The notes: a model not told the origin generated them from the letters alone. DNA of 64,000 nucleotides from Candidatus Cloacimonadales bacterium (GCA_963662655.2 CAXXTU010000002.1:576001-640000), one strand, 5' to 3'. Shown: positions 21,080 through 57,883, counted from the stretch's first letter. Program-made: numbers and translations.

Positions 21080-21233
21080 GGCGTGGAGCCTTCGCCCGAT
21101 CAGCCCGTTCCGCCGTGGATATAACACGATTCCATGCGTGAAGGTCGATTTCCAGCAAAACAAAGTATTCCTCACGCATTGCATCGTGTAACACCACGTC
21201 TTCACGTTCTGATCGAACGAATTCTCTCACGCC
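21080..21233 (-). repeat. Dispersed rod-shaped palindromic element, copy A
   Basis: Plus strand GGCGTG..CTTCGCCCGATC-12nt-CGTGGATATA-[hairpin]-AACACCACG-12nt-GATCGAACGAA..CACGCC; boxes shared with copies B and C. Confidence 0.85.
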
Positions 21234-21247
21234 TTGCTGTAATGGTA

Positions 21248-24200
21248 TCATTTAAGCAGCAGGCATTTCCTGGTCGGCATCGCCTTGCCGTCGATCTGGA
21301 GACGGTACAGGTAGATACCGCTTGCGACTGCCTTGTTCTGTTCGTCGTCACCGTGCCAGACGTAATTGTATCGACCTGCATCGTGATTACCGCTGGCGAT
21401 GGTGCGAATCCTCTGCCCTCTGATATTGAATACTTGTAAAACGACTTCCGCCTTCTTTTTCAGATCGAAGGAGAAGGTTGTTTCGGGATTGAATGGATTC
21501 GGATAATTCTGCAGGAGGCGATCCATGCACGGGAGTATGTCGTCGGAATCGACGTCGATGTTTTCGAAGATGCTCGCCTGATCGAAGACCGCTTCAGCGA
21601 CGACGTTGTCGTCATGAGCCGAGAGCGCGATGCCGGCAAAGGCTTCCGTGTTCATCTGGATATCGATGCCGTTTCCCATGATAACCCATTCGTCCGGGTC
21701 TTCTTCTTCAGAATAATAGGCCCGGAAGAAATTACCGATTCGAACCAGCCGCAGCCATTTTGGGCCTCCCGTGCCTCCGGTGGTGTAACCGATCCACGAA
21801 GCGCTTTCGCCGTCCTCGGTTCGATACTGGAAGGTGACATGATTGTCGGTAATCTGCATGGCGAGCGCAAATGCAGATCCCGGATCGCTCCAGTCATTTC
21901 TCATCATGATGCCGGCTTTCGTCCAGTCTTCCTGGCTATCAACCGACACGCAGCGAATTATGAAGTCGGTGTCTCCTTCGAACTTCTTGAAAACGTAGTG
22001 GAGTTCGTCGGAAGAATTCCAGATATCCGCGCCAGATGCAGTGACCGAGTATGTTTCGTCCAGAAATGAAACGTTTCCGGCGGTATTCACTTCGCCAACA
22101 TCTAGATGGTTCGTGAATAAACCGAGTCCGCTTTGACCAGTGGTGAAGCTCCAGACTTCCCCGGTCGTTGTGCCCATGTTACTTACCGGATCGATCCGCC
22201 AGAAGTACTGTGTTCCGGGTTGGATTCCCTGTGGTTTATAATAAGGCGCGGTGGTGCTTGTAACCTGATCGAGTTGCTGGGTTGTACCGAAATAGACGTT
22301 GTACGAATCCGCGTTGGACGATGGCGCCCAGAGCAGGGCGCAGTTCGACGGAGCGTTAGCCTCTCCGTCGACAGGATTGGGATTGGCCACCTGCTGGGGC
22401 GGTAGACCCACGTTCCAGTCGAAGACTGCGGTGGCAGGCTCGGAGCGTTCGCCGTCAAGTCCTATCGCGAAAACTTCGAGCGTGGTTTGCAGCTCATCGG
22501 GAATGCGATGGATTTCGGGAATAAAGCAGGCTTCCGAGCAGCATCCCCACAGGAACTGGCGGTTCCCGTCGGGCTTGACGCGATAGACGTGGTAGGTCTG
22601 GACGTCGTCGGTCGATGCGTCCCAACGGAGCCGGATGGAGGCCATATTCAGTTCGTCTTCGGCCTTGCTGTCGATTACCACATTCATGGGCGCTGCCGGT
22701 GGCGTTGGTTCTCCCGTGTAGATCCGCATACCTCCAATCTTTATCTCGAAGTCGTTCATTGGGTTGCTCCAATGCAGAGCAAGCCATTCGAGAACACCGC
22801 GATCGCTTCCAGAGAGCGTGAAGGTTGAAGTATGCCATTCGCCATCGGGAGCAGAATCAAAGTCGCTATTCAAAGAGAACGAATCTTCATATTTTATTTC
22901 AAGGACCATCCCGTGATCTCCGCCTGCAGGATATTTCCATGTAATATCTAGATGGGTGTTTGGCTGGAGGTCGATATGTGTTTCCATTAAATAAATCCAG
23001 TTTGTACTGGTAAAATCACCGGTGATTTTGATACAGTTTCCGCCCTGCCATGCGTCCGTCCAATCGAATTCCGGATAAAGCAATTCTCCATCACCATTCA
23101 TTCTCCAACGATGAGTTGGGAGAACATCTTGCATCGCCCGGTTATACCACGCCTGATCGGAGGTCTGCACGCCGTCGGTAAACCAGCCGTAGCCCTGGCC
23201 GGTACAGAAGTTCGTGCTGAATGGCGTTTGCGTTACTGCGCGATCTGCAGGTATATAGTTGGCGATTCCCTTCCAGTCGTCGGTCGTTTCTGTGTTGAGG
23301 GGATCGCGGTTTGCCCCGACCCAGAAACGGCTGGCTCGTTCGTAGTAGTCTTGCAGGTCTGTCGAGCTTTCGTAACACCAGCTTGGGCAATATAGTCCGA
23401 CAGACAGATTGTGCGGTGCGCTTTCAGGTAATAGCAGCGACCAGTTTGCGTTTGTATTGTAGCCATTCGCCTGGACGTCGATGCCTGCATAGAGTTCGTA
23501 TTGGCTGCGGCCCAGGGCAATTGCGTTGGTCACGGAGGTGGCGACATCGTTGCTGTTCCATCCGAAGTCGAGGAACATGGTTTCCGAGACAAGCTGGTCA
23601 CCGTACTGAAAGAACATATCGTTGTTCTCGTTGAGCTGTTCCTGCCAGGAGACGGATCCCGACTCGGTCATTGCGTCATACCACATCAACTCAAGATCGG
23701 AATTCTGCTGGAAGTAGATCATGAAGTCTCGCATCGCTTCGGCTGTCGCGGCATTTCCGCCGGCGGTCTCCTGATTGATGAACCAACCGTCGAAGCCGTA
23801 GTACTCGCAGACTTGGATCAGCTTGTCCGCTACAGGGTACGTCTCGCCTTCCATCTGCAGGAGGTCGTTGACCCACTGAATCTGCCCTCCGTATGCGGTG
23901 GGCGGGAAGAATATTGTTCCGAGTATGGGGACGCCGTTACGGTGTGCCGCAGCGATGACATCCGTGGTGGGAGCGAGGATCAGGCCTTCTCCCGCAGAAC
24001 CGCCCCAGAATACGAAACGATCGGTGTATTGCCAGAAGTGGAATGCCGGACCTTCCGCCTCTGGCCACCCCTGCGACGGGTTATTGCTGGTCCCTGCGCT
24101 GATATAGAGATTGGCAACACGCCCCGCGTTGGGGTAATTGTTGCTGTTGTCCACCCGATAAGGGATATAACGATCGGCCAACGGAACGATACAACGGTTG

Positions 24201-24352
24201 TACGGCGCGTCGGGATCAGCCTCCGGGGACCAGTTCAGAAGCGTATTGGGGTGCCAGTAGGAAGCATAGGGTTGATTGGATGGATACGCCAGCAGGCTCG
24301 TTGCAATGGCCAATAATGCAAGAATCAATAAACAGCTTCGATTGTCTCTCAT
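21248..24352 (-). CDS. Secreted GH85 endo-beta-N-acetylglucosaminidase with Fn3-like modules and FlgD/T9SS-like CTD
   Basis: Start MRDNRSC with signal peptide; FWQYTD.FV.WGGS, AAHRNGVPILGT, YYGFDGWFINQET (N-x-E catalytic motif), WYDAM; CTD NYPNPFNPETT...CLLLK. Confidence 0.9.
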   Translation of the reverse strand: MRDNRSCLLILALLAIATSLLAYPSNQPYASYWHPNTLLNWSPEADPDAPYNRCIVPLADRYIPYRVDNSNNYPNAGRVANLYISAGTSNNPSQGWPEAEGPAFHFWQYTDRFVFWGGSAGEGLILAPTTDVIAAAHRNGVPILGTIFFPPTAYGGQIQWVNDLLQMEGETYPVADKLIQVCEYYGFDGWFINQETAGGNAATAEAMRDFMIYFQQNSDLELMWYDAMTESGSVSWQEQLNENNDMFFQYGDQLVSETMFLDFGWNSNDVATSVTNAIALGRSQYELYAGIDVQANGYNTNANWSLLLPESAPHNLSVGLYCPSWCYESSTDLQDYYERASRFWVGANRDPLNTETTDDWKGIANYIPADRAVTQTPFSTNFCTGQGYGWFTDGVQTSDQAWYNRAMQDVLPTHRWRMNGDGELLYPEFDWTDAWQGGNCIKITGDFTSTNWIYLMETHIDLQPNTHLDITWKYPAGGDHGMVLEIKYEDSFSLNSDFDSAPDGEWHTSTFTLSGSDRGVLEWLALHWSNPMNDFEIKIGGMRIYTGEPTPPAAPMNVVIDSKAEDELNMASIRLRWDASTDDVQTYHVYRVKPDGNRQFLWGCCSEACFIPEIHRIPDELQTTLEVFAIGLDGERSEPATAVFDWNVGLPPQQVANPNPVDGEANAPSNCALLWAPSSNADSYNVYFGTTQQLDQVTSTTAPYYKPQGIQPGTQYFWRIDPVSNMGTTTGEVWSFTTGQSGLGLFTNHLDVGEVNTAGNVSFLDETYSVTASGADIWNSSDELHYVFKKFEGDTDFIIRCVSVDSQEDWTKAGIMMRNDWSDPGSAFALAMQITDNHVTFQYRTEDGESASWIGYTTGGTGGPKWLRLVRIGNFFRAYYSEEEDPDEWVIMGNGIDIQMNTEAFAGIALSAHDDNVVAEAVFDQASIFENIDVDSDDILPCMDRLLQNYPNPFNPETTFSFDLKKKAEVVLQVFNIRGQRIRTIASGNHDAGRYNYVWHGDDEQNKAVASGIYLYRLQIDGKAMPTRKCLLLK

Positions 24353-24369
24353 AAAGCCCTCCCGATTTT

Positions 24370-24846
24370 CTACGCGGTAACAAAATTCTTCAATGTTTCC
24401 AGAACCTTCTCCGCATGGCCCTTCGCGCGGACATTGTCCCAAACCTTCTTGATAAATCCATCCGGATCGATCAGGAACGTGGAACGAACCACGCCCATGT
24501 ACTCCCGTCCGTAGTTTTTCTTGAGACGCCAGGCGCCGTAGGCTTCCAGCGCTTCTTTATCCGGATCGCTGAGCAGAGTCAGACTCAACTCCTGCTTCGC
24601 GATGAATTTCTGATGGCTGGAGATGGAATCCGGGCTGATGCCGATCACTTCAGCGTTCAGCTCCCTGAATTGATCGATCATGCAGGTAAAATCTTTTGCT
24701 TCCAGCGTGCAGCCGGAAGTGTTGTCTTTCGGATAGAAGTATAGGACGATCCATTTTCCCTGAAAGTCCTGCAATGACACTGCGATATCATCCTGGCTGG
24801 TCAATTGGATTTCCGGGGCTATTTGTCCTGTTTCTGGAATTGGCAT
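24370..24846 (-). CDS. bcp: Bcp / PrxQ peroxiredoxin
   Basis: LYFYPKDNTSGCTLEA, GISPD, RSTFLIDPDG. Confidence 0.92.
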   Translation of the reverse strand: MPIPETGQIAPEIQLTSQDDIAVSLQDFQGKWIVLYFYPKDNTSGCTLEAKDFTCMIDQFRELNAEVIGISPDSISSHQKFIAKQELSLTLLSDPDKEALEAYGAWRLKKNYGREYMGVVRSTFLIDPDGFIKKVWDNVRAKGHAEKVLETLKNFVTA

Positions 24847-24977
24847 GCTGGCCTCCTTCTAGCTTTACAAAATGATAGGACACCCGCATTCAATGACAAG
24901 GAATTTTATAAGATTGACAATATCGATGTTCCCATGTAGTTCTCGAACTCGGGAAAACAAATCACTTCGGAGGATTC

Positions 24978-25529
24978 GTGAAGAGGATATTGATCGCATT
25001 GATTATTGTCGTAATTTCCGTGATCGTAGCTGCAGAAGAAAAAGAATATCAGGTCGGGGACAATCTTGTGTGTGCTTCAGGCTGCGATTTCCGGCTTTCC
25101 AGATGGGACGACGTACGTCAGAAAGTAATCGATTCAGAGATCGGCTTCCTTGCCGAGTCGGACGAGGCGTCCGTGTATTTCACCGGCATGGCTTTCGATC
25201 TCACCATGTTGGTGATGTATCATTTTGAGGAAGGGTCGTTTTATCAGGGCGATCTGATTGTCGTGGAAGAATTTACCGAGCCACAGCAGTATGTGGAAGC
25301 GTATAGGAAGATTCTGCGGGAGATGACGCAGAAATATGGCGATCCGATTGTCAGCGATATACTTGCAGAGGATGAGACTCACATGCTGGAAGAGAACTGG
25401 GTTGAGGGCCTCCGTTTACAGGACCTCGTTGTAACGCACTATTGGGAGACGGAACGTTCGGTGATCGGGCTCACGATGGCAAGCGACGATGGAGCGATTT
25501 ACGTGATTACGGAGTTCGCGAAGCAGTAA
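24978..25529 (+). CDS. Hypothetical exported protein
   Basis: GGAGG RBS with GTG start; signal peptide. Confidence 0.7.
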   Translation: MKRILIALIIVVISVIVAAEEKEYQVGDNLVCASGCDFRLSRWDDVRQKVIDSEIGFLAESDEASVYFTGMAFDLTMLVMYHFEEGSFYQGDLIVVEEFTEPQQYVEAYRKILREMTQKYGDPIVSDILAEDETHMLEENWVEGLRLQDLVVTHYWETERSVIGLTMASDDGAIYVITEFAKQ

Positions 25530-25534
25530 GATCG

Positions 25535-25984
25535 TTACTTCTTCGGTAAATGCCCCAGTTCGAAAACTTTTTGCTTATGTTCCTGCTCTTCTTTGGCGAT
25601 CCTGCGAACGGTTTTTGCCGAGTTTAACATCAAGTGCCCTGCCATTTCCATGTGGCCGGCGATCTGATCGTAGGCATATCCCATGATACCCTCCGCGTCG
25701 GCAAGCATGTCGCTCAGCTTCGCCACGTGATCCGCAGTCGGGATTTCCTGGAGCAGTTTATTCTTCAATTTGTTCTCGAGCTTCAAGTACTTCTGCTTGT
25801 TAAGTGGAATTTCACTGATTTTTTCCGCAATCTCACGTATTGCTAGGCTGTGCTCGTGAGAGTGCTCGCTCATGAACTTGAAAAGCGCTTCGAATTCCTG
25901 CATTTTCTTCATGCTGGCGAGCCGCTGGTAAAACAATGAAACGTCGTCTTCCAGTTGTATCATAAGCTCGAGTATTTCTTTCAT
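25535..25984 (-). CDS. Ferritin-like / rubrerythrin-like protein
   Basis: Start MKEILE with AGGAG RBS; E..FY, HSHEH, IAKEEQEH (ExxH-like) helices. Confidence 0.65.
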   Translation of the reverse strand: MKEILELMIQLEDDVSLFYQRLASMKKMQEFEALFKFMSEHSHEHSLAIREIAEKISEIPLNKQKYLKLENKLKNKLLQEIPTADHVAKLSDMLADAEGIMGYAYDQIAGHMEMAGHLMLNSAKTVRRIAKEEQEHKQKVFELGHLPKK

Positions 25985-26268
25985 GATTTGCTCCTGATAT
26001 ATAATATACTCGATCCGTTCGGGGTCGTCAAGAAATTGAGGGAATGGACAGATGGAAAAGGGTGTCGGGTGGGTAAATCCTGGGCTATCTGATTCTGGAA
26101 AAGGGAGAACCTCCTCTCGACTTAGGCAATACAGGCAGCAAGTCACTCGTCAAGAGGAGGTTTCTGAGGTGTATGAGATAACAATTACGATTTTCCCTTG
26201 TGAGACATACTACTTCTTCGGAAAAATCTTGCACTCTATCATAATCCGCATAAGTCGCGGAGGTTTAA

Positions 26269-26790
26269 TTAATTGCGTTGCGGAGGCTGTCCGCCGAAAC
26301 CTCTACCAGGCCTGGAACCCGACATCGCCTTCATCCATACAGGATGGCCTTCGTTATCGATGAGATCGTAATCTTCGTCCTCGTAGTGAATGAATGTTGC
26401 CATGTAGGTGTCGCAATCCGGGCGCTTGATACCTTTCAGGCGGATGGACGTTCCGGTTGCAACGTCCACTTTTTTCGATTTCCAGTACGATTTGGTTCCG
26501 ATGTCCACTTTGTCTCCCGAGTAAAGCTCGATGAAGAGGTGTTCTTCCTGCTGAAGTCCCTGCCCCTGCTCTCTGCGTGCGCCTCCACGTCGCGATGAAT
26601 CGTCACGGTTCGGCATGGATGGCGTCTCTACGGTTACTCCTTTGACTACGCCCACGAGTTCTACGGCATCGTCTTCATTGAAGGCCATACCGCCCCCGTT
26701 TCTGTCGCGTTCGAAATCCATGGGTTGGGCAAGGAGCGCTAACGACGAAAGCATCGTCAGCCCTGCGAGAAACATGATTATTATTTTCAT
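26269..26790 (-). CDS. Hypothetical exported protein
   Basis: Start MKIIIMF after GGAGG; signal peptide. Confidence 0.65.
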   Translation of the reverse strand: MKIIIMFLAGLTMLSSLALLAQPMDFERDRNGGGMAFNEDDAVELVGVVKGVTVETPSMPNRDDSSRRGGARREQGQGLQQEEHLFIELYSGDKVDIGTKSYWKSKKVDVATGTSIRLKGIKRPDCDTYMATFIHYEDEDYDLIDNEGHPVWMKAMSGSRPGRGFGGQPPQRN

Positions 26791-26929
26791 CTTCGTTATC
26801 CTCCGTTGATTTGCACTATTAGACAGATTCGAATGGATAATCCTGCGATTTTTCCTGCACACGACGATGAGAGTTGACAAAAAAAACGATCACCGGTATT
26901 AAAGAGACGCTCCCAGAACAGGATCGATT

Positions 26930-27832: not shown

Positions 27833-27834
27833 GC

Positions 27835-29113: not shown

Positions 29114-29468
29114 GATGCCTCCACACGTTTGATGTCATACTATGATATTGGAAATTCCTGGTTGTCAATGATATTTTTAATTTTTGGAATACTCTCATTT
29201 TTCTGTGGAATCCTGGTTCGATGAATATTGATCGATGTTATCCACAATGTCCTTCGACTCTATGGGTGATCCAGGTTATCACTTCGTGAAACCTACAACT
29301 CAAGGATGACACGATTATTTTGCAACATACTGGCAGGTTGATAACATCTTCAAACAGGCAACGAAGCATAGCTTTATGAATAAATGGGGGTATGCGTGTT
29401 TGACAATTATCCTTGACAGGAGAGATCGGTGATTCATAAGCTCTTCCCGAATAATCAACGAGGGATGT

Positions 29469-30584: not shown

Positions 30585-30877
30585 GTTTTCGCAATGCGAA
30601 AGCCGGAGAGATATAAGGAAAATGATTATCCACTTTCGCCTTTCGCTGTGCGAAAGGCTTACGTTCGAAGATTTCGTTTTTGCTTCGCAAAAGCCAGAGA
30701 GAATTAAGGAAAATGATTATCCACTTTCGCATTTCGCTGTGCGAAAGGCTTACGTTCGAAGATTTCGTTTTTGCTTCGCAAAAGCCAGAGAGAATTAAGG
30801 AAAATGATTATCCACTTTCGCATTTCGCTGCGCGAAAGGCTTACGTTCGAAGTTTTCGTTTTTGCTTCGCAAAAGCC
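30585..30877. repeat. 91-bp tandem repeat array (about 3.2 units) with two hairpins per unit
   Basis: AAGGAAAATGATTATCCACTTTCGC recurs at 30615, 30706 and 30797; hairpins TTTCGC-TGT-GCGAAA and TTTTGC-TTC-GCAAAA. Confidence 0.95.
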
Positions 30878-30884: not shown

Positions 30885-33860
30885 TCATTTAAGAAGCAGC
30901 ATCTTCCGTGTGCCGATAGCCTTACCGTTTGCCTTGAGCCGATAAAAGTAGATGCCTGTGGCAACCTGTTTGCGATTCTGGTTGGTTCCATCCCACACGA
31001 CCTGATGGCGTCCTGCGGTGAAATGCTCGTCAACAACGGTTCTCACGAGCTGTCCACGGATATTGTAGACATCCAGTTCAATTTCCGCCGATTGCTTCAG
31101 GCTGAAATCGATTTTGGTCACCGGATTGAAGGGATTGGGGTAATTGCCATGAAGCTTTGCAAAGACCGGAGCGGAAGTGGCTGCACCTCCCGAATGGGGA
31201 TTCTCGTCGTATGTCAGCTCCTCGTAGGCGATGTTCAGCATTCCAACCTGCTCCGTCGTGCGGATTTCGATGAAGTAGTAATCGTTCGGCGTGGGGATGT
31301 CGATCATCCCATCGATGTCCTGCCAGTCGTTCCACTCGATCAGGCTGACATCGTCAAACCAGTTGTGGCCCGTTGGGGAGTCGTTGAACTCGCTATACAC
31401 ATGCACGTCGAAGAAAGTAGCGCCTTCCGGCGGATCGATTTCGGACCAGTAGTAGTTCCAGTCGCTGGTTCCGCTGATGTAGTCGCCAAGAGCTTGTTCG
31501 CTGAGGACATAGTTTTGCGTGCGGGAATTGTAACAACGAACTTTAAGCGTCGCTTCCACCGCGTTTTCCGTCTTGATCCAACCGTTGATGGTGTACGTCA
31601 ATGTGTCGGAGGTGCAGGGGATGCGGTTCTCAAGGTTGACGGTAACGCCGTCGTTTCCGCTCCAATCCTGCTGGCGGAGTGATCGTTCTCCACGGTAGAA
31701 CACATCGTTGTCGTATGCCTCGTAACTGCTGTTCAGGTTCCAGAGCGAGCACCCCTCGTCTTCCATGTTTCCCCACCAGAGCCTTTCGCGACCAACGCGG
31801 AACTGGCAGCCGGTGACGATGTCCGATATCTGTATTGACGAGATATTGCCGCTGCGAGTGAGTCTGACGGGTCCTGAAGTGTAATACTCATCGCTTTCCA
31901 CCATCTCGAGTGTTTCGGAATAGAGCTCCGTCTCCGCAGTGTACTGCGATGTGTCCATGATCACATGGGCGATGACGTTTTCACGGTCGATGTCCAGCCA
32001 TGTATCGAGTTCCCATGATTTCTGGGCGAGGTAGTCGAGGATATGAAGTCCCATTTCGCCTTCTGCCCGTTGAGGGATGTAGTCGTCGATAAAGACAGGC
32101 GTGATGCTGAAGTTCTTGTAACCGTCCTCGTCGACTTCCGCGTTGAGCACCATGGAGGGCATCGTTTCGGGGTAGTCGAGTTCGAAAATGAAGTTACCCA
32201 GCGAATGGGCGATGAGAGTACCGTTGTAGACCTCCAGACCTTGAATGATGTGCGGGTGGTGGATAATGACCAGATCGGCTCCGCTATCTACTGCGAAGTG
32301 GCGCAGCTCGCGATCCCACATTTGCGGGACGTCGTAAAGCGGGGAGTAGTCTTCGTCCCCGTTGTAGTCGATGTCTGGCTGTTCGGGGATATCATAGTTG
32401 TCGCCCGGTTCCGTGGAGTATTCGCTTCCGGCATGCAGAAGCAGGGTGACCAGATCTGCGGTTCCTTCGACCGATGCGATCTGTTGCATGATGTTGTAGG
32501 GGGTGAGGTAGGCGAAGCCAGCTTTATTCGCCCCGGCGTTGAGATACGGCTGGAAGTTGTTGTACTGACCGGTACGATCGCTGGACATCAGGAACGCCAT
32601 GTTAATGCCTGAGATATTTGCGTAAACGGGTAGATTGGCTTCGTATTCATCGAGCCCCGCACCTGAAAATTTGATGTTTTGTTCAACAAGCATCTCACGG
32701 GTCTCGATCAGCCCTTCTTCCATGTAATCGAGGATGTGGTTGTTTGCCAGGGAGACGATATCGATCCCGCCGAAAGATAGTCCTTCGACGTTGTTTGGGT
32801 TACCCTTGAAGCAGACTGTTTTCGTCGGATGTTGGTTGTAGGACGAAGTAAGCTGGCACTCGAGATTGGCAACGGTCAGGTCGGCCGCATCTCCGAGGAT
32901 CGGCAGTGTAGGCTCGTAAAGGGATGCAACTCCCTGGGTGGGAATAATCCCGCCAGGAGCATCGTAGCGACGGGCCATCATGATGTCGCCAACGAAGTTA
33001 ACGGTAACGGGCAACGTCGATTCGCCTTCGTCCATCCATATCGTGCAGGTTGCATCGCCCCACGTGCCTGTGTCGTCGCATACCTGAAGCAGTATCGTGT
33101 AGTCGTGGTCGTCCTGAACAAAATAGGTGTGTACGGGATTCTCTTCCTCGCTGACATCTCCATCGCCGAACGACCAGTAATACTGGAATTCGTCGCTATC
33201 GGGATCGTCGATTTCGCACGAGAACTGCACGGTCATGTCACGGGTCGACTGATCGTTAATCACGTAGGAGATGGATACCTCCGGTGCGACGGGCAGGTCC
33301 TCGGTGATGTTCACGATGTGATCGAAATAGGTTATACCATCCCATCCGCTATCGCTGTCGTTGATGTAGACGATGGACGTGATGGTGGGATAGTATTCGA
33401 ATCTCGCCATCCAATCATGCGCGACAGGCAGCATAATCTGGTTCCATTGATTCTCGCTGAAGGCCCCCTGGTAAACGGTGACCCATTCATCGATGTCGAG
33501 CATTTGCGATCCATCGAACGAATAGAAAAGCGTGTGGGCGCTGTCTTGCAGGGCGAATCCCTGGATTTCGCTGTCTTCATCGACATAAAAAGCAATCTGC
33601 CACATATCGCCCTCGCAGATTTCCAGCGAATCGATGGGTTGGACCTTCCATGTATTACCGTACAGGATGAGCGAGTAGTCTGAATCGTTAAAAGTGTTCA
33701 GGCTGTCGATTGCCCAGTCGTCCGGATCGGCGTCTTCATCCGGATATGAGAAGAGCTCGATATTGGGATTCTCGAAATCTTCTATGACGATTTCGCGATA
33801 GCTCGAAGCAAAGAGGCCCAGAGAGGCACAGAGAAATAAAAAGAGTATATTCAAGCGCAT
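30885..33860 (-). CDS. Secreted CapA/PgsA-family metallophosphoesterase with PKD domain and FlgD/T9SS-like CTD
   Basis: Start MRLNIL; PKD YYWSFGDG...NPVHTY; CapA motifs VGDIM, ANLE, LANNH..DY, HAG.EY, HHPHIIQ, SLGNFIF; CTD NYPNPFNP...MLLLK. Confidence 0.88.
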   Translation of the reverse strand: MRLNILFLFLCASLGLFASSYREIVIEDFENPNIELFSYPDEDADPDDWAIDSLNTFNDSDYSLILYGNTWKVQPIDSLEICEGDMWQIAFYVDEDSEIQGFALQDSAHTLFYSFDGSQMLDIDEWVTVYQGAFSENQWNQIMLPVAHDWMARFEYYPTITSIVYINDSDSGWDGITYFDHIVNITEDLPVAPEVSISYVINDQSTRDMTVQFSCEIDDPDSDEFQYYWSFGDGDVSEEENPVHTYFVQDDHDYTILLQVCDDTGTWGDATCTIWMDEGESTLPVTVNFVGDIMMARRYDAPGGIIPTQGVASLYEPTLPILGDAADLTVANLECQLTSSYNQHPTKTVCFKGNPNNVEGLSFGGIDIVSLANNHILDYMEEGLIETREMLVEQNIKFSGAGLDEYEANLPVYANISGINMAFLMSSDRTGQYNNFQPYLNAGANKAGFAYLTPYNIMQQIASVEGTADLVTLLLHAGSEYSTEPGDNYDIPEQPDIDYNGDEDYSPLYDVPQMWDRELRHFAVDSGADLVIIHHPHIIQGLEVYNGTLIAHSLGNFIFELDYPETMPSMVLNAEVDEDGYKNFSITPVFIDDYIPQRAEGEMGLHILDYLAQKSWELDTWLDIDRENVIAHVIMDTSQYTAETELYSETLEMVESDEYYTSGPVRLTRSGNISSIQISDIVTGCQFRVGRERLWWGNMEDEGCSLWNLNSSYEAYDNDVFYRGERSLRQQDWSGNDGVTVNLENRIPCTSDTLTYTINGWIKTENAVEATLKVRCYNSRTQNYVLSEQALGDYISGTSDWNYYWSEIDPPEGATFFDVHVYSEFNDSPTGHNWFDDVSLIEWNDWQDIDGMIDIPTPNDYYFIEIRTTEQVGMLNIAYEELTYDENPHSGGAATSAPVFAKLHGNYPNPFNPVTKIDFSLKQSAEIELDVYNIRGQLVRTVVDEHFTAGRHQVVWDGTNQNRKQVATGIYFYRLKANGKAIGTRKMLLLK

Positions 33861-34009
33861 AGAACATCCTTTGTTTTGGTTGTGGTGGAAATCCTCATCT
33901 ACAAATAAATCAAGAAACGTTCCAATATGCAAGCAAAATTATTACGTGGAAACTTCGAATCGTTGAATCAGCCCGGCAAGCTGGAGTTTTAATCCTTACG
34001 AAACCAAAC

Positions 34010-34136
34010 GGCGGGGCATCTTCGCCCGATCATGCCGCTCCAACGTGGATATAGCACACCATCGGAACAATCGAACGTAAAAAAATGGTGTGCAACACCA
34101 CGTCTGCGCGGCAGATCGAACGAATCTGCTCCCGCC
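34010..34136 (-). repeat. Dispersed rod-shaped palindromic element, copy B
   Basis: GGCGGG..CTTCGCCCGATC-12nt-CGTGGATATA-GCACACCAT..ATGGTGTGC-AACACCACG-11nt-GATCGAACGAA..CCCGCC. Confidence 0.85.
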
Positions 34137-34203
34137 TCGATGAACGTTTCAGGTAAACATTGACAGTAAAAAGTGATCAACGTTGTTTACATACGAGGTG
34201 AAA

Positions 34204-36177
34204 ATGAACATCGTATTATATATATCCCATCATGGTTTCGGGCATGCAACGCGGATGAACGCGCTTGCAGGGGAGCTGAAAAAATGCGGAATCTTCTGTC
34301 ACATCCGGTCCGGGAAACCGGAATTCCTTTTTCAAGCGCTCGACGACCAGTTTTACGAGTTAACGCCGGTTACAATCGATGATGGACTCAAGCATCGCAA
34401 CTGGTGGATGATCGATCTCGAAGCGACGCGCAAAGCGATTCAGGATCGTTACGGAGATTATCGCGAATTGGTGGAGGGGGAAGTGCGATTCATCCGCGAG
34501 AACGAGATCGAGATGGTCGTCGGAGACATTCCTCCGCTGGCTTTCGAGATCGCTTCGCAGGCGGATGTGTTTTCGATAGCGATATCCAACTTCGACTGGT
34601 ATTACAACTATCTGCCATTCTTCAAGGGGGATGCTGAGATCATGCCGATTCTGGAGAAGATATCGAGCATGTATCATAAAGTGGATTACGCGATCAAGCT
34701 GCCGTTTTCGGACGAGGATAGCATGGCGCAGTTCCCGGTGATGGATGAAGCCGGCTTGCTCACGCGCGAGATGCATCCCGATCGGGCGGCTTTTTGCGAG
34801 AAAAACGGAATCGATCCTGGGAGCCTTTTGATTAGGGTTTCCTTCGGCGGCGAGGGAGGCAATCCGATAGATATGGCAGTGCTTTCGGGCGTTGAGGGGA
34901 TTACAATTATCGCGAAGGGCTCGCCGGAGAACGATTACGGCTGTGTGCGGCATTTCAATACGCACGAGGCCTTCACCGATGCGATGAGCGCTTGCGATAT
35001 CTGCATAACGAAGCTCGGATACAGCACCCTCGCCGAGTTGACGCAACTGGGTAAATTTGTGATCTACACCTACACGAGCGTGCTGCCTGAGAATGTGGTT
35101 CTGGAGCGTGGGCTGGACGAATACTCCCGCAAGATGTACATCCCGCTGGACGAAATCGGGCACGCCGACTGGCAGGAGATTATTGAAGATATCCGAGGAC
35201 AGTTGGACAAGCCGTACAACGAGGAGAAGTACCGCAACAGGAATCGCGAAGTGGGGAAGATGTGCATTCGCAAACGATTCGAGAGCACCGAAGGAAAGGT
35301 CGCGATCATCGATGTGGGCACGAACAATATCCAGATGCTGTGGGCGATCCATTCTATGGACGGAATCAGGGTTGTGCATCGCGCCTCCCGGATTTCCGCG
35401 CTCGGTAAGGGCATGAAGGACGGAAGGTTGACCTCTGCCGGGATTCAACGCGCGAAGGATATCCTGGCGGATTACGCCGATTACGCGCAGGCTTTCTCCG
35501 ATCGCGTGATCATTACCGGCACGAGCTGCTCCCGCGAAGCGAGCAATATCGCCGAACTCTCCGACTGGATTCGCGAGAAGTACGGAATCGAGTATCGCAT
35601 CCTTTCCGAGGAAGAGGAAGCGCTTAACACTGCCGAAGTCATGCGCGAGGATTTCCCGGAATACGAGCGGATCGTTTCGTTCGATATCGGCGGAGGGAGT
35701 ACGGAGTTCAACTTGCTGGTCGACGGTGAATTACAGAGATCGATAAGCCTGCCTGTCGGCATTCGGCGTCTGGAGACGCTCTTTGGGAACGATTACGGCA
35801 GACAACGCGAGTATATCCTGCATCAACTCGAACGAATCAGGGGCTGGAAAGCTCAGGACGTACATCTGACGGGCATCGGCGGCAGCATCGCAAACCTTGC
35901 GGCGATCAAGGCTGGATTGAAACGATATCGCCCGGAAATTGTACACAAGATGACACTCGAATCGGCGGACTTGAAGAATTTCATTGACATTTTCGGAAAT
36001 TTAACCTACAAAGAAATCCAGACGCTAATGCCATTCGAACCGGCACGAGCCGATCTGATCCGTTCCGGTTCCGTTTTCATCAAAATGGTGATGGATTTTT
36101 TCGAGCAGGATACCGCTGTCGTAAGCGACCGCGGCTTGATGTTTGGCGTTCTGTATCGGTTGATCAAAGAGAGTTGA
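34204..36177 (+). CDS. Fusion of a GT-B glycosyltransferase-like domain and a Ppx/GppA phosphatase
   Basis: GAGGTG RBS with ATG at 34204. N-terminal YISHHGFGHATR, GDIPP, SNFDW, SFGG, TKLGYSTLAE; C-terminal IDVGTN, GTSCSREASN, EEEA, DIGGGSTE, GIGGS, RADLI, SDRGL..G. Confidence 0.85.
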   Translation: MNIVLYISHHGFGHATRMNALAGELKKCGIFCHIRSGKPEFLFQALDDQFYELTPVTIDDGLKHRNWWMIDLEATRKAIQDRYGDYRELVEGEVRFIRENEIEMVVGDIPPLAFEIASQADVFSIAISNFDWYYNYLPFFKGDAEIMPILEKISSMYHKVDYAIKLPFSDEDSMAQFPVMDEAGLLTREMHPDRAAFCEKNGIDPGSLLIRVSFGGEGGNPIDMAVLSGVEGITIIAKGSPENDYGCVRHFNTHEAFTDAMSACDICITKLGYSTLAELTQLGKFVIYTYTSVLPENVVLERGLDEYSRKMYIPLDEIGHADWQEIIEDIRGQLDKPYNEEKYRNRNREVGKMCIRKRFESTEGKVAIIDVGTNNIQMLWAIHSMDGIRVVHRASRISALGKGMKDGRLTSAGIQRAKDILADYADYAQAFSDRVIITGTSCSREASNIAELSDWIREKYGIEYRILSEEEEALNTAEVMREDFPEYERIVSFDIGGGSTEFNLLVDGELQRSISLPVGIRRLETLFGNDYGRQREYILHQLERIRGWKAQDVHLTGIGGSIANLAAIKAGLKRYRPEIVHKMTLESADLKNFIDIFGNLTYKEIQTLMPFEPARADLIRSGSVFIKMVMDFFEQDTAVVSDRGLMFGVLYRLIKES

Positions 36178-52700: not shown

Positions 52701-52997
52701 AAGCGTTATATACTGAACACCCTGAGGGATCGTGGCAATGTGCAGGATGCCGTTCTGATAATCGACACGATAGTCGCGTCCTCGCACAAACAAGAAGCTC
52801 GCCGCATCGTCGGGATTCATGACGGAAAGGGTATCGGTGTTCACGATGATATTGCGGTGTTTGAGGGGAATCTCCGTGCCTTTTCGCGTGAGATCGAACG
52901 TCTCCTCGCGCTGAATGGGGGAGAAGTAATTATATGCAAAGGCGTGGCTTGCCAGGAAGACCAGTAGAAGGAATAGACTCGCCTTACTCCGATTCAT
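49701..52997 (-). CDS. Very large outer-membrane beta-barrel protein
   Basis: Start MNRSK with signal peptide; GSETVYLNG...RGSDYTIDY..G.I.F motif; Tyr-rich strands; terminal IRAEF. Confidence 0.75.
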   Translation of the reverse strand: MNRSKASLFLLLVFLASHAFAYNYFSPIQREETFDLTRKGTEIPLKHRNIIVNTDTLSVMNPDDAASFLFVRGRDYRVDYQNGILHIATIPQGVQYITLSYRIYPENLRERYYFYRMASSDSTSAPKMSRRKQWDLTGRTDLTITGSKTISLTVGNQDDVSIDQSLFVKMDGELSPGIKVQAQLSDSQSPITPEGDSREISNLDQVFIKLYGNHYEVAFGDLDYPIEGTQFMNVDLQFEGLRAGWYGENTFRGALAVSRAKTQTVEFNGEQAKQGPYYLNLDGFTLLVVAGSETVYLNGVAMQRGSDYTIDYEEGTITFTNDHFIDEDSFIMVVFQYSDEDYRKNLYMASAQTKPFGRFYFDAHAIVSNDDRNNPLQETFSDEDKAILKAAGDEIAWGNGIYEVEAGDGSYILVTEGDESYYEYVGYDSTGTYALSFSYVGAGNGSYEQQTPSIYYYVGEGMGRYEPVRELPSPERLINYDFSAGWKGDYLKIDTEALVTSLDKNTWSSKDDSDNDSWATHTGFELAPRFDRFEPQLTGYYRHFKKGLAPFAEIDDPASSYDTYEFTRNDSVSRQEIFGNYSMRLFELFTPSITYTEKEYKDFAAFKRTVYTGTLNQFSFVPYVFMRYQESSQDYTDPDSEQRAASIDRINLTSHYTYRNYRLGGDYYRNRFIEQYRNESDYEDTNLTWKLFAGTWETKVVATEVSYTNDRYEIVSSDFQQNTETWELDYLMNYSNHRMKLRYLHRIVEKQDDDDQYDIAELSSVNNFLDDAVSISLNYSLSNLEFYPKVRELQFVGEGIGDYDSTGVYVEEGDYDWFYITSGEPELSIEVNTDASLFLNPKLLFPTHPFLSKLQSETYVAITENSRSNDKWKVYLLSSDRMMDSNYTIYGSNSFQQTLWYDLITKTLLLKGQYSKDQNLDNRYQEPTDYSDETWFFSANYKKLQNNDLELSWENTVEEDSYYESEIETNTYTFTVVTRATKSLLLNTDLSYAAEDGVQRINKKDYAIRSLGLSENLTLYLLTKYRIFSRFAYKHNERSGSDYLNYLAEKREGDLFEWSVNLSYKVNQFTSASFQYSGDAYPDQETSHEMTLEIRAEF

Positions 52998-53442
52998 GCA
53001 ATGCTTGATTGAGATGAATCGAATCGATCCAGGATTGATTGCCTTCCAGCGTAACCTTGCGATGTTGATTGCAATATTCGAATCGAAGCTTGAGGGTGTT
53101 TTCCGGAAGAACGGACTCTGCAAGTTGCGGCCATTCGATGATGACGATCTTCCGCCCGAAGATTTCGTGCAGGCCGAGCTCCCACACCTCTTCCTCGCTT
53201 TCCAGGCGATACAGATCGATGTGGACGATGTCTTCGCCGTACTCGTGCATGATCACGTAGCTGGGGCTGCTGACGATGTCCCTGCTGTCCAGCGCTGCGC
53301 AAAAGGCGCGCGTGAAGAAGGTCTTGCCGGCTCCCAGGGGCCCGGACAATGCCAGTGTATCGCCTTTCCGAACGTTCATGGCGATATGTTTCGCAAAAGC
53401 GTTTGATTGATCTTGATCAAGCAGTTCGATTTCTTTTATCAC
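52984..53442 (-). CDS. tsaE: t6A biosynthesis ATPase TsaE
   Basis: LSGPLGAGKT, VSSPSY, HIDLYRL, IIEWP. Confidence 0.95.
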   Translation of the reverse strand: MIKEIELLDQDQSNAFAKHIAMNVRKGDTLALSGPLGAGKTFFTRAFCAALDSRDIVSSPSYVIMHEYGEDIVHIDLYRLESEEEVWELGLHEIFGRKIVIIEWPQLAESVLPENTLKLRFEYCNQHRKVTLEGNQSWIDSIHLNQALHESE

Positions 53443-53567
53443 GTTAACTCCAAATAAATAACACCTGAATCACGAATTGTTTCAATCATCGGGATTGTCA
53501 ATAGATATGTAATGCCCTATCCTTTGATTGGTAGAGCATTTAGTCGTGAAAACTTATTTAATGTAAA

Positions 53568-53942
53568 CTATTTGAGTTTCTCGAGTTCGGCTTCAAAATC
53601 CTCCAGCGCTTTGCGAACCCCTTCGTCATCCTTGTACTGGGTCGCGGTCAGTGCAATGACTTCGATGCTTTTGAAGAGTGTCTCGAAGGCGTCGGCCAGC
53701 TCTTGTTTCTGCGCGTCGTCAGTCAGGGAAAGCTGGGCGTTGGCTTCGAAAACGATGATGATTTCCTTCTTCAATTCAGCGAGAATCTCTGTGAAATCTT
53801 CGGGTTGCTGAACTGCTTTCGCCTGGATGGCAAGCTCTTTCACGCGGTTTGCGGCTTGAACAATGCTTTCTTCGGGAGTTTGTTCGGCCGAGATGGCGAT
53901 CGCCAATATCACAAGGATCGTCAGTGCGAGTATCTTTTTCAT
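53568..53942 (-). CDS. Hypothetical exported helical protein, paralog of 53968..54393
   Basis: Signal peptide; helical; QYKDDEGVRKALE resembles KYQNHPEVKASIE. Confidence 0.7.
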   Translation of the reverse strand: MKKILALTILVILAIAISAEQTPEESIVQAANRVKELAIQAKAVQQPEDFTEILAELKKEIIIVFEANAQLSLTDDAQKQELADAFETLFKSIEVIALTATQYKDDEGVRKALEDFEAELEKLK

Positions 53943-53967
53943 ATTCCGTGATCTCCTGTTCTAAAAT

Positions 53968-54393
53968 CTATTCTTCGATGTGTGGGGTTGATTCCTGCAT
54001 GATTTCATCGAGCTTCTTCATCTGTTTCATGTATTTCTCGATGGACGCCTTGACCTCTGGGTGATTCTGGTATTTTTTTACAGCTTTTTGCACTTCGATC
54101 ATGCTGCTTTGCATGTTTTTGGCAAAGTTCCTCATCGTGGCATCGAGTGAATCCGGGATGGTCTGGGTCTCTGCGATCTCTTTCTGTAAATCCATCGTTG
54201 CATAAGCGTATGTGGACATTAGGGATGTCAGGTCGTCGAGCAGACGCACAACTTGATCGACAGTGGTTGCTTTTTGTGCGTTCGTAGCAATCGCCTGAAG
54301 TTGTGTATCGACATCCTGCATTACCTCCATCGGCGGTTTTGCGTATAGGAGTGTGCATGACATAATCGCCATGAGAATAATAAACTTCTTCAT
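53968..54393 (-). CDS. Hypothetical exported helical protein
   Basis: Signal peptide; GAGG RBS. Confidence 0.7.
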   Translation of the reverse strand: MKKFIILMAIMSCTLLYAKPPMEVMQDVDTQLQAIATNAQKATTVDQVVRLLDDLTSLMSTYAYATMDLQKEIAETQTIPDSLDATMRNFAKNMQSSMIEVQKAVKKYQNHPEVKASIEKYMKQMKKLDEIMQESTPHIEE

Positions 54394-54561
54394 GAATACC
54401 TCTTAAACATTGTGTCTCCAGATGGGCAATAAAACCTGATTTCCTAATTATCTGGAGACCATCCGGCTAATATCCGAACCGGAAAAACATTTGTCCACTT
54501 TTTTCCATGGAAAAAATCGGACAGGCACATGGGGAGGGTTGGGTGTTTCAGACGAAAGGGA

Positions 54562-57500
54562 TTATGAGATGTCTTTATCGAGCAGTTTTCGTATCAGACG
54601 GGCTATGTCGGGAAGCATGAATGGCTTGTGGATGATGGTCGATACATGCTGCAGGTTGTCGAGGTCATCTGTTTGATTGTAGCCAGTGCAGAGGATGATC
54701 GGCAGGGAAGGCTCGATGCGATGGATCTCCGCAGCGAGCTCGTCTCCGTGCAGTTCGGGCATGGTGAGGTCCGTGATCAGAATATCGTATCTCTGCGGGT
54801 GATCTTTATATGATTCAAGCGCTTTTGTGCTGCTCGAATGCACTTCGACGCGATAGCCGAGTTTTTCGAGTGAAACCTTGACCACTTCGCCGATCATCAC
54901 TTCGTCGTCCACGAAGAGGATTTGCTCGTTTCCTCTGGGAATGACATGCGCGTCATCTTCGATCGAGGTCTCTACTGGCTCAATCAGTGGCAGGTATATC
55001 TCGAATTTCGTACCCAAGCCAAGCTGGCTTTCCACGGTGATCTCTCCGAAGTGTTCATGGATAATGCCGTAGACAATGGATAGTCCAAGGCCCGATTTCC
55101 CATGTTCGCGTCTTGTTGTGTAGAAGGGATCGAAGATTTTGGGGAGGTTTTCCGCGGAGATACCGCTTCCGTTATCGACGATTTCGAGAAGGAGGTAGTT
55201 ACCTTCGTTCAGGGAGTGCCGGAGGCTGTGCCGCTCATCGACCATTTCTTCGTAAACGCTGATCCTGATGGTACCGCTTGTCCCGAAAAGAGCCTGGCTC
55301 GCATTGGTGCACAGGTTCATCAGAACCTGATTCATCTGCATGGGATCTGCCATGATGGTGTCGTTATTCGTCTTGAAATCGACTTTGATGTTAATCGTTA
55401 TCGGCAGGGTGCTCCGAAGCAGGTCAACCGTACTTGTTACAACCGATTTCATTCTGATCGGCTTTCGCTCGGGTTGCGAATGCTTGCTGAACGCGAGGAT
55501 GTGGGCCACCAGCTTGCGAGCTCTCTCGGCAGCCGCCATGATCTCCTCATTGTACTCATGAACGCTCGAATCAGGTGGGAGCTCCTGAAGCGAAAGTTCC
55601 GTGAATCCCATGATTGCGCTGAGGATGTTGTTGAAATCGTGTGCGATGCCACCGGCCAGCGTTCCCACAGCGTCGATCTTCTGGGATTGAGCGATTTGCT
55701 TTTCCAGCCTTCTTTTCTCGGTGATATCCTTCACGACGAAGACGTAGTTGATAATGCGGTCGTTGATGTCTTTAAGGGGTGATATCGTCGTGTCTGCATC
55801 GTAGGTTACTCCTTCCCGGGTTTGGTTGAGAAGCATACCGGACCACGGGTTTCCCTGGTTCAACTCGCGAAGGACCATGTCTTCGATTTTAAGTAGTGAC
55901 TTATTCTCTATAACGGCGCTGTACTGGCTTCCGAAAATTTCTTCGAAGGTGTACCCGTTGAGCTTTTCGAATGCCTTGTTGACATAGATAATCTTGCCGC
56001 CGGTGTCTGTGATGAAGATTGACTCGGATACCTGCTCGATCGCTTTGAGTATTCTGTCCCGGTGTTCGTAGGCCATTTTCTCGTCGGTGATGTTCTGATT
56101 GATCCCGATGATACGAATCGCGTGGCCTTCCCGGTCGCGGTCAACGACCTTGCCCTGGCTGCGGATCCACAGGATGGATCCATCTTTCTTCAGGATGCGG
56201 TGTTCAATTTTCAGGGTGTCGTTCCCGGTTTGATTGAGCGCTTCCATCTCTTTGATTACCCGGTCGAGATCATCCGGGTGCTCTACTCTGAAGATTAAAT
56301 CAAAGGGATCGATGTCTTCATTACTGGCGTAGCCAAACATATTGTACCATTCATCGTTGAGACTGACTTTCTGAGATAACGGATAGATGTCCCACAAGCC
56401 GAGGCTAATCCCGTGGATTGCCAGATCGCACCGTTCCTTTTGTTCGCGAATAGTGTTGCTGGCATGTGTTTTAATGAAGATGATGATGGCTCCAAACACT
56501 ATGCAAACGCCGAAGAACATGCCCATAAGGACGAACCATGTCTTCAATTTCCGGTAGTCCTTCACGATGGGTTCCGGTTCTCCTATTATAATAGAGCTCC
56601 CCGGCAATTGCTTTCTATCTATCCCAAACCTTTGGAGTTGTTCATAGTAAAACATAGGGAAAAAGGTTGATTTGGAGTCGATCGGGATGGCTTCGGGCCT
56701 TTTTCCTTCCAGGATTTCCATCGCCATTTTCGCAGCGACCGATCCCTGCGCTTTGGAATTGACGATGTAGCCTCCCGTAGCGCCGTATTGCAGAAGATTG
56801 TCCCAGGCTGTGTAGATGGGGTAAGCAATGTTGTCTGCAACGAATTTCAGGTCTTTTTCCGATACCACATTTCCTTTATTGTCCAAATAGTAAGATAAAA
56901 CGAAGATTACAGTGGGTTGATCGATGGCGTTTATCGATTGTATCAATTCATAGGGTGGGGTACCGACGAATTCATGGTACTGATATTGTTGAAGGTACTG
57001 ATTGATATTCCTGCGGAAGGTCAGCAGATGTTCGTATCCTGTTCTCGTATGATCTGCGACGACGGCTATATGTCTTGTATCCGGGTGAAGGCCCAAGGCC
57101 AATCTGATGGTGCTTGCAAGGTCGTATTCTTCGAGAATTCCTGTGCATTTATTTCGTCCATCGAGCATTTCTTCCGTGAAGAAATTGATGCCGGTGAAAA
57201 CCAGTGGGATATCCGTGAAAAGCTCATTTTGATGTGAAATAACGAATTCAAGAGCGTTGTTATCGGACACAATCACGACGTCCGGTGGATTTTGAGAATA
57301 TTTCTGGTCCAGTAAGTTGAAAAGCGGGGCTTCTATATTCTTCAGGGGGTAGCGCTTGCTGTCCATGTATTCTGTGAAGATACCGAGGTCGTAGGGTGAA
57401 TCAGACAAAGAAGACATGATGCCTTGGTGAATGGATGCAGTCCATGTGAAATCGGAATGATACGAGTGCAGAATAAGAATGTTCTTTTTTAGAGGGACTT

Positions 57501-57588
57501 GTTCGGAAGCTAAACCGGATGCGACGATCAACGCCATGAAACAGAGGAGAACTCTTGCAAAAAAGGCAATATGTATCCGGTGTTGCAT
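54562..57588 (-). CDS. Hybrid sensor histidine kinase (periplasmic ABC-substrate-binding-like sensor, PAS domains, HisKA, HATPase, receiver)
   Basis: ILILHSYH..F.W, HPDD, AGGIAHDFNNIL, QVLMNLCTNA, DNGSG, GLGL, FVDDE, ITDLTMP, KPF. Confidence 0.95.
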   Translation of the reverse strand: MQHRIHIAFFARVLLCFMALIVASGLASEQVPLKKNILILHSYHSDFTWTASIHQGIMSSLSDSPYDLGIFTEYMDSKRYPLKNIEAPLFNLLDQKYSQNPPDVVIVSDNNALEFVISHQNELFTDIPLVFTGINFFTEEMLDGRNKCTGILEEYDLASTIRLALGLHPDTRHIAVVADHTRTGYEHLLTFRRNINQYLQQYQYHEFVGTPPYELIQSINAIDQPTVIFVLSYYLDNKGNVVSEKDLKFVADNIAYPIYTAWDNLLQYGATGGYIVNSKAQGSVAAKMAMEILEGKRPEAIPIDSKSTFFPMFYYEQLQRFGIDRKQLPGSSIIIGEPEPIVKDYRKLKTWFVLMGMFFGVCIVFGAIIIFIKTHASNTIREQKERCDLAIHGISLGLWDIYPLSQKVSLNDEWYNMFGYASNEDIDPFDLIFRVEHPDDLDRVIKEMEALNQTGNDTLKIEHRILKKDGSILWIRSQGKVVDRDREGHAIRIIGINQNITDEKMAYEHRDRILKAIEQVSESIFITDTGGKIIYVNKAFEKLNGYTFEEIFGSQYSAVIENKSLLKIEDMVLRELNQGNPWSGMLLNQTREGVTYDADTTISPLKDINDRIINYVFVVKDITEKRRLEKQIAQSQKIDAVGTLAGGIAHDFNNILSAIMGFTELSLQELPPDSSVHEYNEEIMAAAERARKLVAHILAFSKHSQPERKPIRMKSVVTSTVDLLRSTLPITINIKVDFKTNNDTIMADPMQMNQVLMNLCTNASQALFGTSGTIRISVYEEMVDERHSLRHSLNEGNYLLLEIVDNGSGISAENLPKIFDPFYTTRREHGKSGLGLSIVYGIIHEHFGEITVESQLGLGTKFEIYLPLIEPVETSIEDDAHVIPRGNEQILFVDDEVMIGEVVKVSLEKLGYRVEVHSSSTKALESYKDHPQRYDILITDLTMPELHGDELAAEIHRIEPSLPIILCTGYNQTDDLDNLQHVSTIIHKPFMLPDIARLIRKLLDKDIS

Positions 57589-57755
57589 CCAGACCCCTAC
57601 TACTTAGGATGTAATAATTACTTTATGTATTCAACTTCCTTCATGTGAGCTTCTTATTTACAATATACTGGTACTCGGTAAAATGTGACAAATTCTTTTT
57701 GGATTATTCTTTCGCATAGAGTACATGGTATGATTCTTTCACAAGCTGGTATACC

Positions 57756-57883
57756 GGCGTGGCATCTTCGCCCGATTCCCCTTTTCAACGTGGATATACC
57801 GCGCCTTCGAGACTACCGGACACGAGATAAAAAGGCGCGAAACACCACGTTGAAAAGGTGGATCGAACCAATCTGCTGCCGCC
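57756..57883 (-). repeat. Dispersed rod-shaped palindromic element, copy C
   Basis: GGCG..CTTCGCCCGATT-11nt-CGTGGATATA-CGCGCCTT..AAGGCGCG-AACACCACG-11nt-GATCGAACCAA..CGCC. Confidence 0.85.

Follow-up and report, generated by a model that had tools for sequence, protein, structure and literature searches.

A genus-restricted family of rod-shaped palindromic repeats with replication-linked orientation in Candidatus Cloacimonadales

Results

The window analysed here is a 64,000-nucleotide (nt) stretch, C2:576001-640000, of the genome of a Candidatus Cloacimonadales bacterium (G000), and it contains three copies of a rod-shaped palindromic repeat, all read on the minus strand. Copy A (21080-21233, minus, 154 nt), which belongs to the medium size class and has a longer apical domain, lies 14 nt past the stop of a GH85 gene (21248-24442, minus). 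Copy B (34010-34136, minus, 127 nt) and copy C (57756-57883, minus, 128 nt) belong to the short class. B occupies the gap where a Ppx/GppA gene (34183-36177, plus) diverges from a PGA_cap gene with a type IX secretion system (T9SS) tail (30885-33932, minus), and C has its place 38 nt past the stop of ligA (57922), upstream of the gene for a hybrid histidine kinase (54562-57588). T9SS-type sorting domains are present among the window's proteins, in agreement with an FCB-group organism.

The original prediction, an earlier note on this DNA, had placed three minus-strand copies with a common layout at these loci, and direct reading, pattern searches and a covariance model all bear this out. Two two-box patterns each match only loci A, B and C in the window (no matches in 100 shuffles), and the covariance model R1, which was built on a trimmed alignment of 20 short copies, returns identical ends for all three (G000:C2:597080-597233, 610010-610136 and 633756-633883) at 87.2, 127.3 and 115.3 bits, respectively. 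The stems that had been quoted, namely TGCCGC/GCGGCA, CCTTTTCAA/TTGAAAAGG and three terminal stems, are all present in the sequence. The same note had expected three to four copies in 64 kb and many genome-wide; the three copies stand, and about 120 occur genome-wide, but neither the two-box patterns, model R1 nor nhmmer found a fourth copy in the window.

Across the whole of G000 (3.81 Mb in two contigs, 98.95% complete), nhmmer finds 127 loci, comprising 120 full and 7 partial copies. Model R1 gives at least 125 matches there (the best 150 of 1558 candidates were scored), although four of the 125 (784440, 2660519, 277341 and 193387) read as reverse-strand shadows of stronger overlapping matches. 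A loose two-arm regular expression retrieves 85 copies genome-wide, and the left-box pattern alone 50, against none for its reversed control. All three other species of the genus (G001, G002 and G003) carry the family; in a like-for-like search with 85 candidates scored per genome, G000 gave 85 matches and its sisters 32, 39 and 61. The family was not found in 37 other genomes of the family and order to which the genus belongs, nor in 148 other genomes sampled across the phylum. A metagenome scan with a 22-base pattern gave four rows, none of which matched the model, a scan of viral contigs gave no matches, and a genome-contig scan with a 17-base pattern gave, among the matches listed, chance matches in unrelated taxa. 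Among the matches listed in literature searches, there was no account of such an element in work on Cloacimonadota repeats (supplementary files being outside the scope), and the box sequences returned unrelated primer-type matches only. Model R1 marks the genus, and it flags about 120 intergenic sites where gene callers may place spurious open reading frames.

Taken from an alignment of many copies and read 5' to 3' along the folding ('top') strand, the layout starts with helix P1, in which GGCGyG pairs with CrCGCC, and continues through a three-pair step (GCA/TGC), a symmetric 2x2 tandem G.A loop (GA opposite GA), helix P2, in which TTCGTTCGATC pairs with GATCGGGCGAA and two U.G wobbles stand next to each other, and a variable helix P3 of 8-11 nt each side. 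There follow helix P4, in which CGTGG pairs with CCACG (the variants CGGGG/CCCCG and CATGG/CCATG preserve pairing), a conserved asymmetric loop (TGTT opposite TATAT), and an apical part made of a variable stem and loop. In copy B, with every position read on the minus strand, the 5' strand of P1 is GGCGGG (34131-34136), which pairs with CCCGCC (34010-34015), and the tandem G.A loop sets GA at 34125-34126, ahead of box 1, opposite GA at 34019-34020. Box 1, the 5' strand of P2 (34114-34124), pairs with 34021-34031 and contains two tandem T.G wobbles, just as the original prediction had said. Box 2 (34094-34102) supplies the 5' strand of P4, CGTGG, which pairs with CCACG at 34044-34048, and then TGTT opposite TATAT at 34049-34053; the variable apical hairpin, GCACACCAT ... 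ATGGTGTGC plus its loop, fills 34054-34093. Beyond P1, the family stays conserved for about 4-10 nt in the 3' direction (GGTA...) and for 2 nt in the 5' direction (GA). P1 is the family's most variable helix, with all five modelled P1 pairs covarying, and outside the fixed inner boxes information content drops to about zero within some 10 nt, a point that corresponds to the foot of P1.

Measured on the span of the nhmmer hit, which is a few nt below the full unit, copies fall into classes of 120-129 nt (n=77), 130-159 nt (n=13), 170-189 nt (n=20) and under 120 nt (n=7), with single copies of about 210, 230 and 390 nt. In the long class, a second repeat of about 72 nt is nested in the tip; it forms a fourfold tandem in the 392-nt copy and also stands alone elsewhere in the genome. 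Related to this tip module is the unit of a tandem array at 30599-30877 of the window, just past the stop of the PGA_cap/T9SS gene (91-nt period, 3.1 copies, 96% match), the two representing a second family of small structured repeats. Higher-order tandem clusters of the element itself occur at G003:C4:433682/433989 and 971208/971640. Several copies also share a pyrimidine-rich motif downstream (G000:C2:1591832-1591920, 1608290-1608380 and 2247425-2247510), in which a CT-rich run is followed by TCCTGCTAATC and several spaced AATC, and then by GATTCAAAC. This motif may represent a further repeat, or else regulatory DNA that these sites have in common, read on the opposite strand.

The rod is predicted by RNAalifold from 29 copies, with 39 pairs, 20 of which show compensatory changes. 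When 87 copies (86 distinct) from the four species are aligned, the fraction of paired cells is 96.0%, where shuffles give 77.7%, and double changes occur at 29 of 38 pairs, although these pair counts come from model-fitted or MAFFT alignments and the 87-copy alignment, being fitted to the model, is biased towards structure. The covariation score is 0.513, compared with 0.06-0.105 when the pairing partners are slid, and none of 500 shuffles matched the observed values. G-U and U-G cells outnumber A-C and C-A cells by 362 to 28, or by 222 to 28 once the two conserved wobbles are removed, and an excess of this size implies that just one of the strands is the folding one. With RNA parameters (-73.0 kcal/mol for the top strand, -59.7 for the bottom), the top strand is the stabler of the two in 82 of 84 short copies, and with DNA parameters in 77 of 84. 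Eighteen independent closest pairs of copies (86-94% alike) differ at 81 base pairs, of which 21 are double compensatory changes, 22 are single changes that keep the pair, and 38 are broken in one copy. Selection for pairing has thus been at work recently, although some copies are decaying. Covariation, G-U excess and strand stability thus back the earlier claim that selection acts, in a strand-specific manner, on structure plus box sequence.

Is the rod then an RNA in its own right? Tandem G.A and tandem U.G pairs and conserved asymmetric loops are common in structured RNAs and, together with the G-U excess, would suit stand-alone small RNA genes, or a retro-mobile RNA that is copied through RNA in the manner of a bacterial short interspersed element. 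I consider this very improbable. At the gathering score Rfam gave no matches across the window, and none was found for long-class copies at E values up to 0.01; a permissive search of copy B (E up to 10) returned only chance microRNA and snoRNA rows. The element is absent from Rfam, and the earlier view that it is not coding is supported. No conserved promoter or motif lies upstream of the copies, the only reverse transcriptase in G000 is a split defence enzyme of the AbiP2 type, and autonomous transcription would run head-on to replication for most copies.

Gene contexts, which come from a purpose-made and crude gene caller (3070 genes, 92% coding), divide the 120 full copies among convergent (52), co-directional (58) and divergent (10) gaps; three copies lie inside called genes. 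Convergent gaps make up 355 of 3068 gaps yet hold those 52 copies (binomial p 2e-18), and the median distance to a stop codon is 29.5 nt for an upstream same-strand gene (n=74) and 31.5 nt for a downstream opposite-strand gene (n=88). Such a position at gene 3' ends and in convergent gaps, along with the G-U excess, the greater RNA stability of the top strand and the recent compensatory changes, would fit a host-domesticated transcript element, in which the rod, placed in the 3' (or 5') untranslated region of mRNAs, would stabilise them, block RNases, terminate transcription or insulate convergent genes from one another. Transcript functions of this kind have been reported for REP, ERIC and Correia elements. 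Here I regard them as unlikely. In co-directional gaps the folding strand is sense in 22 copies and antisense in 36, so the copies are not co-oriented with genes; orientation follows replication, not transcription, no U-run follows P1, and occupancy of orthologous sites is not conserved. The cis-regulatory or non-coding RNA function that had been proposed earlier fails on the same grounds, orientation ignoring the flanking genes, the flanks sharing no motif, and occupancy differing between species.

On contig C2, cumulative GC skew is lowest at 2.76 Mb and highest at 0.8 Mb; dnaA coincides with the low point (C2:2766490), which confirms the origin. The top strand is lagging-strand sequence in 91 of 123 G000 copies (p 1e-7), and the bias recurs whatever the gene context, at 36:14 in convergent gaps, 10:0 in divergent gaps, 15:9 among lagging-strand genes and 25:7 among leading-strand genes. 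In G000 the copies change orientation at the origin (dnaA, 2.77 Mb) and again where skew is maximal (0.8 Mb), and in G001 and G003 they do so where the skew switches: on the single contig of G001, 22 of 22 copies among the matches listed obey the rule against sampled skew, and on contig C4 of G003, 16 of 19 do so in regions of clear skew. The folding strand, carrying lagging-strand sequence, thus sits on the leading-strand template. Hairpins are weaker in copies of the minority orientation (-34.4 kcal/mol, against -38.7 in the majority; Mann-Whitney p 0.003). This dependence on the replichore fits the earlier idea that the element is a substrate as single-stranded DNA. Called genes in G000:C2:0-800000 lie mostly opposite to the skew-marked leading strand (275 plus, 373 minus); over the remaining two thirds of the chromosome the leading strand has its usual excess of genes.

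KOPS and Chi-type skewed motifs offer an analogy for a polar chromosome-organising DNA site, in which a host protein would bind the boxes as a duplex or an extruded cruciform and the replichore orientation would itself be the function. The points at which orientation changes in G000 (origin and skew maximum) and in G001 and G003 (skew switches) agree with such a site, as does the conservation of the boxes over four species whose genes are about 70-79% identical. So do the copies upstream of the thi operon in G000 and G001, which are opposite to each other relative to the operon and both obey the replichore rule. A site of this sort is nevertheless quite improbable, because the bias is only 74% in G000, a long structured element with covarying stems is needless for duplex binding, and spacing is uneven, with some tail-to-tail pairs only 38-44 nt apart. 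Moreover, organising motifs belong to conserved machinery, whereas this family is confined to one genus (0 of 148 other sampled phylum genomes).

Since the genes of the four species are about 70-79% identical in DNA, only one comparison of filled and empty sites was usable, that at the thi operon. There G000 has an upstream copy that is antisense to the operon and a downstream copy that is sense; G001 has an upstream copy only, in the other orientation and with its insertion point about 30 nt away from that of G000, G003 has a downstream copy only, and G002 has none. The filled site in G001, set against the empty one in G003, shows P1 to belong to the inserted unit. At three further sites filled in G000, no copy was found in the other three species (nine stretches, filters off), and at the copy B site the G001 stretch does not align to the element (an alignment only, with no model search there). 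The orthologous site in G003 (C4:2235300-2236400) holds several tandem units of about 190 nt that belong to another repeat, and no element.

A G000 copy and a G002 copy that are 91% alike have unrelated flanks. No two copies in G000 are more than 95.7% alike, with most at 70-80%; in the sister genomes the within-genome maxima are 0.84-0.90 among sampled copies, apart from one local tandem duplicate. A 243-nt stretch, consisting of one copy with 60-nt flanks, differs at only two positions between G002:C9:11532-11774 and G003:C4:1074052-1074294, which suggests, from this identity, a recent exchange of a DNA segment within the genus.

Discussion

On balance, and with moderate confidence, I take this genus-restricted family of rod-shaped palindromic repeats of about 126 nt to be a REPIN-like, non-autonomous mobile DNA element that would act through the single-stranded fold of one strand, and not a riboswitch-type RNA. 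An orientation tied to replication and not to genes, flanks without conservation, and sites that turn over from species to species speak against a cis-regulatory RNA and against a stand-alone RNA gene, and favour an element that acts at the DNA level as a folded single strand. A protein would recognise the conserved boxes on folded single-stranded DNA and would cut at the foot of P1, irrespective of the sequence of P1; this mobilising enzyme may be of an undescribed kind. The orientation bias could have either of two origins. When the strong-folding strand of a copy is on the single-stranded lagging-strand template, that copy might be excised or deleted more often, for which sedentary integrons are a precedent, the bottom strands of attC being located on the template of the leading strand in 25 of 30 of them (PMC5371416, in excerpt), or insertion at the fork might be polar. 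Family-specific orientation bias is known in general for insertion sequences (PMC3971601, in excerpt). I lean towards differential loss over polar insertion, because hairpins in the minority orientation are weaker and because of the integron precedent.

Several results weigh against this interpretation, in addition to the structure-biased alignments and crude gene calls noted above. Foremost among them, G000, at 98.95% completeness, contains no Y1_Tnp/RAYT (PF01797), no TnpB-type zinc ribbon and no IS110 DEDD domain, its best match to the integron integrase model (TIGR02249) reaches 67 bits against a cut-off of 265, and its sole reverse transcriptase is the split AbiP2-type defence enzyme. Y1 genes are present in the sister species (three in G001, three in G002 and seven in G003), but none of these 13 loci has a copy of the element within 1.5 kb (filters off). 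The copies show no insertion signature, there being no target motif at them, and no target-site duplication was found among 3-8-mers at all boundary offsets in the 109 of 120 full copies with both anchor motifs. As the best pair in G000 is only 95.7% alike, no recent burst is visible, and the aligned ends of an ISL3-like insertion sequence in the same genome are almost identical, in contrast to the divergent hairpin copies. IS200/IS605 elements use the lagging-strand template for insertion and excision alike (PMC6006769, in excerpt), which is the polarity opposite to that of the present element, with its folding strand on the leading-strand template. The orientation bias is flat across a proxy for copy age (27:10, 24:13 and 30:7), and with no age trend polar insertion and differential loss are not told apart. 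Finally, the best match to SbcD reaches 34.5 bits, below the cut-off of 77.65; cleavage by SbcCD is therefore not available to explain loss, and that version of the loss model was dropped.

If no known transposase is at work, the family could be a new kind of replication-polar hairpin element, which would spread and persist by means of an undescribed structure-specific enzyme or of the replication machinery itself, and whose folding strand would be kept on the leading-strand template genus-wide. I hold this only as a tentative and rather doubtful possibility.

The original prediction had also suggested an HUH enzyme encoded elsewhere, and the Y1 counts above, zero in G000 and 13 genes in the sisters without a neighbouring copy, do not bear it out. 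A variant of that idea is that the copies are decaying relics of an IS200/IS605- or RAYT-driven family (a PATE, or a REPIN proper), the Y1 enzyme having been lost from G000 and surviving in its sisters. The distribution of Y1_Tnp in the four species agrees with this, as do the age of the G000 copies (at most 95.7% alike) and the lack of target-site duplication, as in HUH transposition. Nonetheless, I assign it a low probability. No Y1 locus has a copy nearby, a 137-aa Y1 gene in G001 instead adjoins a different REPIN-like palindrome, and G000, which has no Y1, yields the most matches (85 against 32, 39 and 61, with 85 candidates scored each). Pairing still stands at 95-96%, sister-species copies are no more alike than those of G000 (maxima 0.84-0.90 among sampled copies), and a folding strand on the leading-strand template is the reverse of the rule for IS608 (PMC6006769, in excerpt).

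The different palindrome in G001 (L284:1335-1425) is rod-like and made of two inverted CCCACGG...CCGTGGG hairpin units; it comes directly after the 137-aa Y1 gene, at a locus between a Y-family polymerase gene and an XerC/D-like gene, and from this arrangement the pair looks like a classical REP/RAYT pair. The AbiP2-type reverse transcriptase of G000 lies outside the window (C2:981049-982608) and is divided into frames of 148 and 358 aa, with one TGA inside the RVT_1 match; judged by these frames, it would be either a pseudogene or a recoded gene.

Other potential sources of mobility were considered and set aside. The multi-copy insertion sequences of G000 are ISL3-like (n=12) and IS3-like (n=8), and a miniature inverted-repeat transposable element (MITE) derived from either was rejected, both having ends unrelated to the element (rarer types of insertion sequence were less exhaustively compared). 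The ISL3-like sequence (for example, G000:C2:1506285-1507292) has inverted ends GGCACTGTTGCAAAC... and A/T-rich flanks, and the ends that were aligned came from 8 of its 12 copies. Judged by sequence, the ISL3-like and IS3-like elements, but not the hairpin family, look recently active. Operons with inverted copies on both sides were likewise examined as a source of the enzyme; they contain housekeeping genes (thiamine synthesis, a UmuC-like polymerase, peptidyl-prolyl isomerases and DUF58) and no candidate.

This family from the uncultivated phylum Cloacimonadota combines very clean covariation and a strong replication orientation rule in three species with the lack of a recognisable mobiliser in G000. 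It therefore offers a test case for how such repeats move or persist, and for whether fork asymmetry alone sorts hairpin repeats by strand.

Relation to other repeats

REP, REPIN and ERIC-type repeats are known mostly from Proteobacteria, and the mobilisers best understood for them are the Y1 transposases. MITE-like intergenic palindromes such as ERIC and Correia measure about 100-160 bp, and a REP is a short block that is itself an imperfect palindrome. The MITE-like palindromes share with the present element a similar size, an inverted symmetry that spans the whole element, and an intergenic position near gene ends. The element differs from them in having neither target-site duplications nor an autonomous insertion sequence that shares its ends, and in that its copies diverge strongly in sequence while the fold is kept. 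The ends of IS200/IS605 elements and the PATEs are alike in their single-strand hairpins, lack of target-site duplication and replication-coupled orientation, but G000 has no Y1 transposase or TnpB.

The nearest known kind, which the original prediction had left unnamed, is the REPIN. REPINs have conserved ends and a spacer whose pairing is kept by compensatory change, and the present element resembles them in being extragenic, in its roughly 100 copies, in its two inverted conserved blocks, and in a spacer paired through compensatory changes (PMC3116915, in excerpt). In both, a long hairpin is predicted in single-stranded DNA or mRNA, and higher-order tandem clusters also occur. However, G000 has no RAYT or Y1, and the element does not flank the Y1 genes of its sisters. 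There are two separate boxes in each arm, and the arms pair mutually, not each with itself. Furthermore, P1 is the most variable helix, the tip is modular, and the folding strand lies on the leading-strand template. With the layout and covariation of a REPIN but no association with a RAYT, the family is best filed under dispersed hairpin repeats without a recognised mobiliser.

The likeness to integron attC sites that had been pointed out earlier holds as an analogy only. The RYYYAAC/GTTRRRY boxes are missing, the element ending in GGCG.../...CGCC with different inner boxes, and copies are dispersed singly rather than in cassette arrays beside intI/attI, no integron integrase having scored above its cut-off in G000. 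Nevertheless, as in attC, there are two boxes per arm, structure is kept above sequence, asymmetric unpaired features mark the strand, and the terminal structure varies; and the recombinogenic strand of attC in sedentary integrons has the same polarity as the folding strand of this element (PMC5371416, in excerpt).

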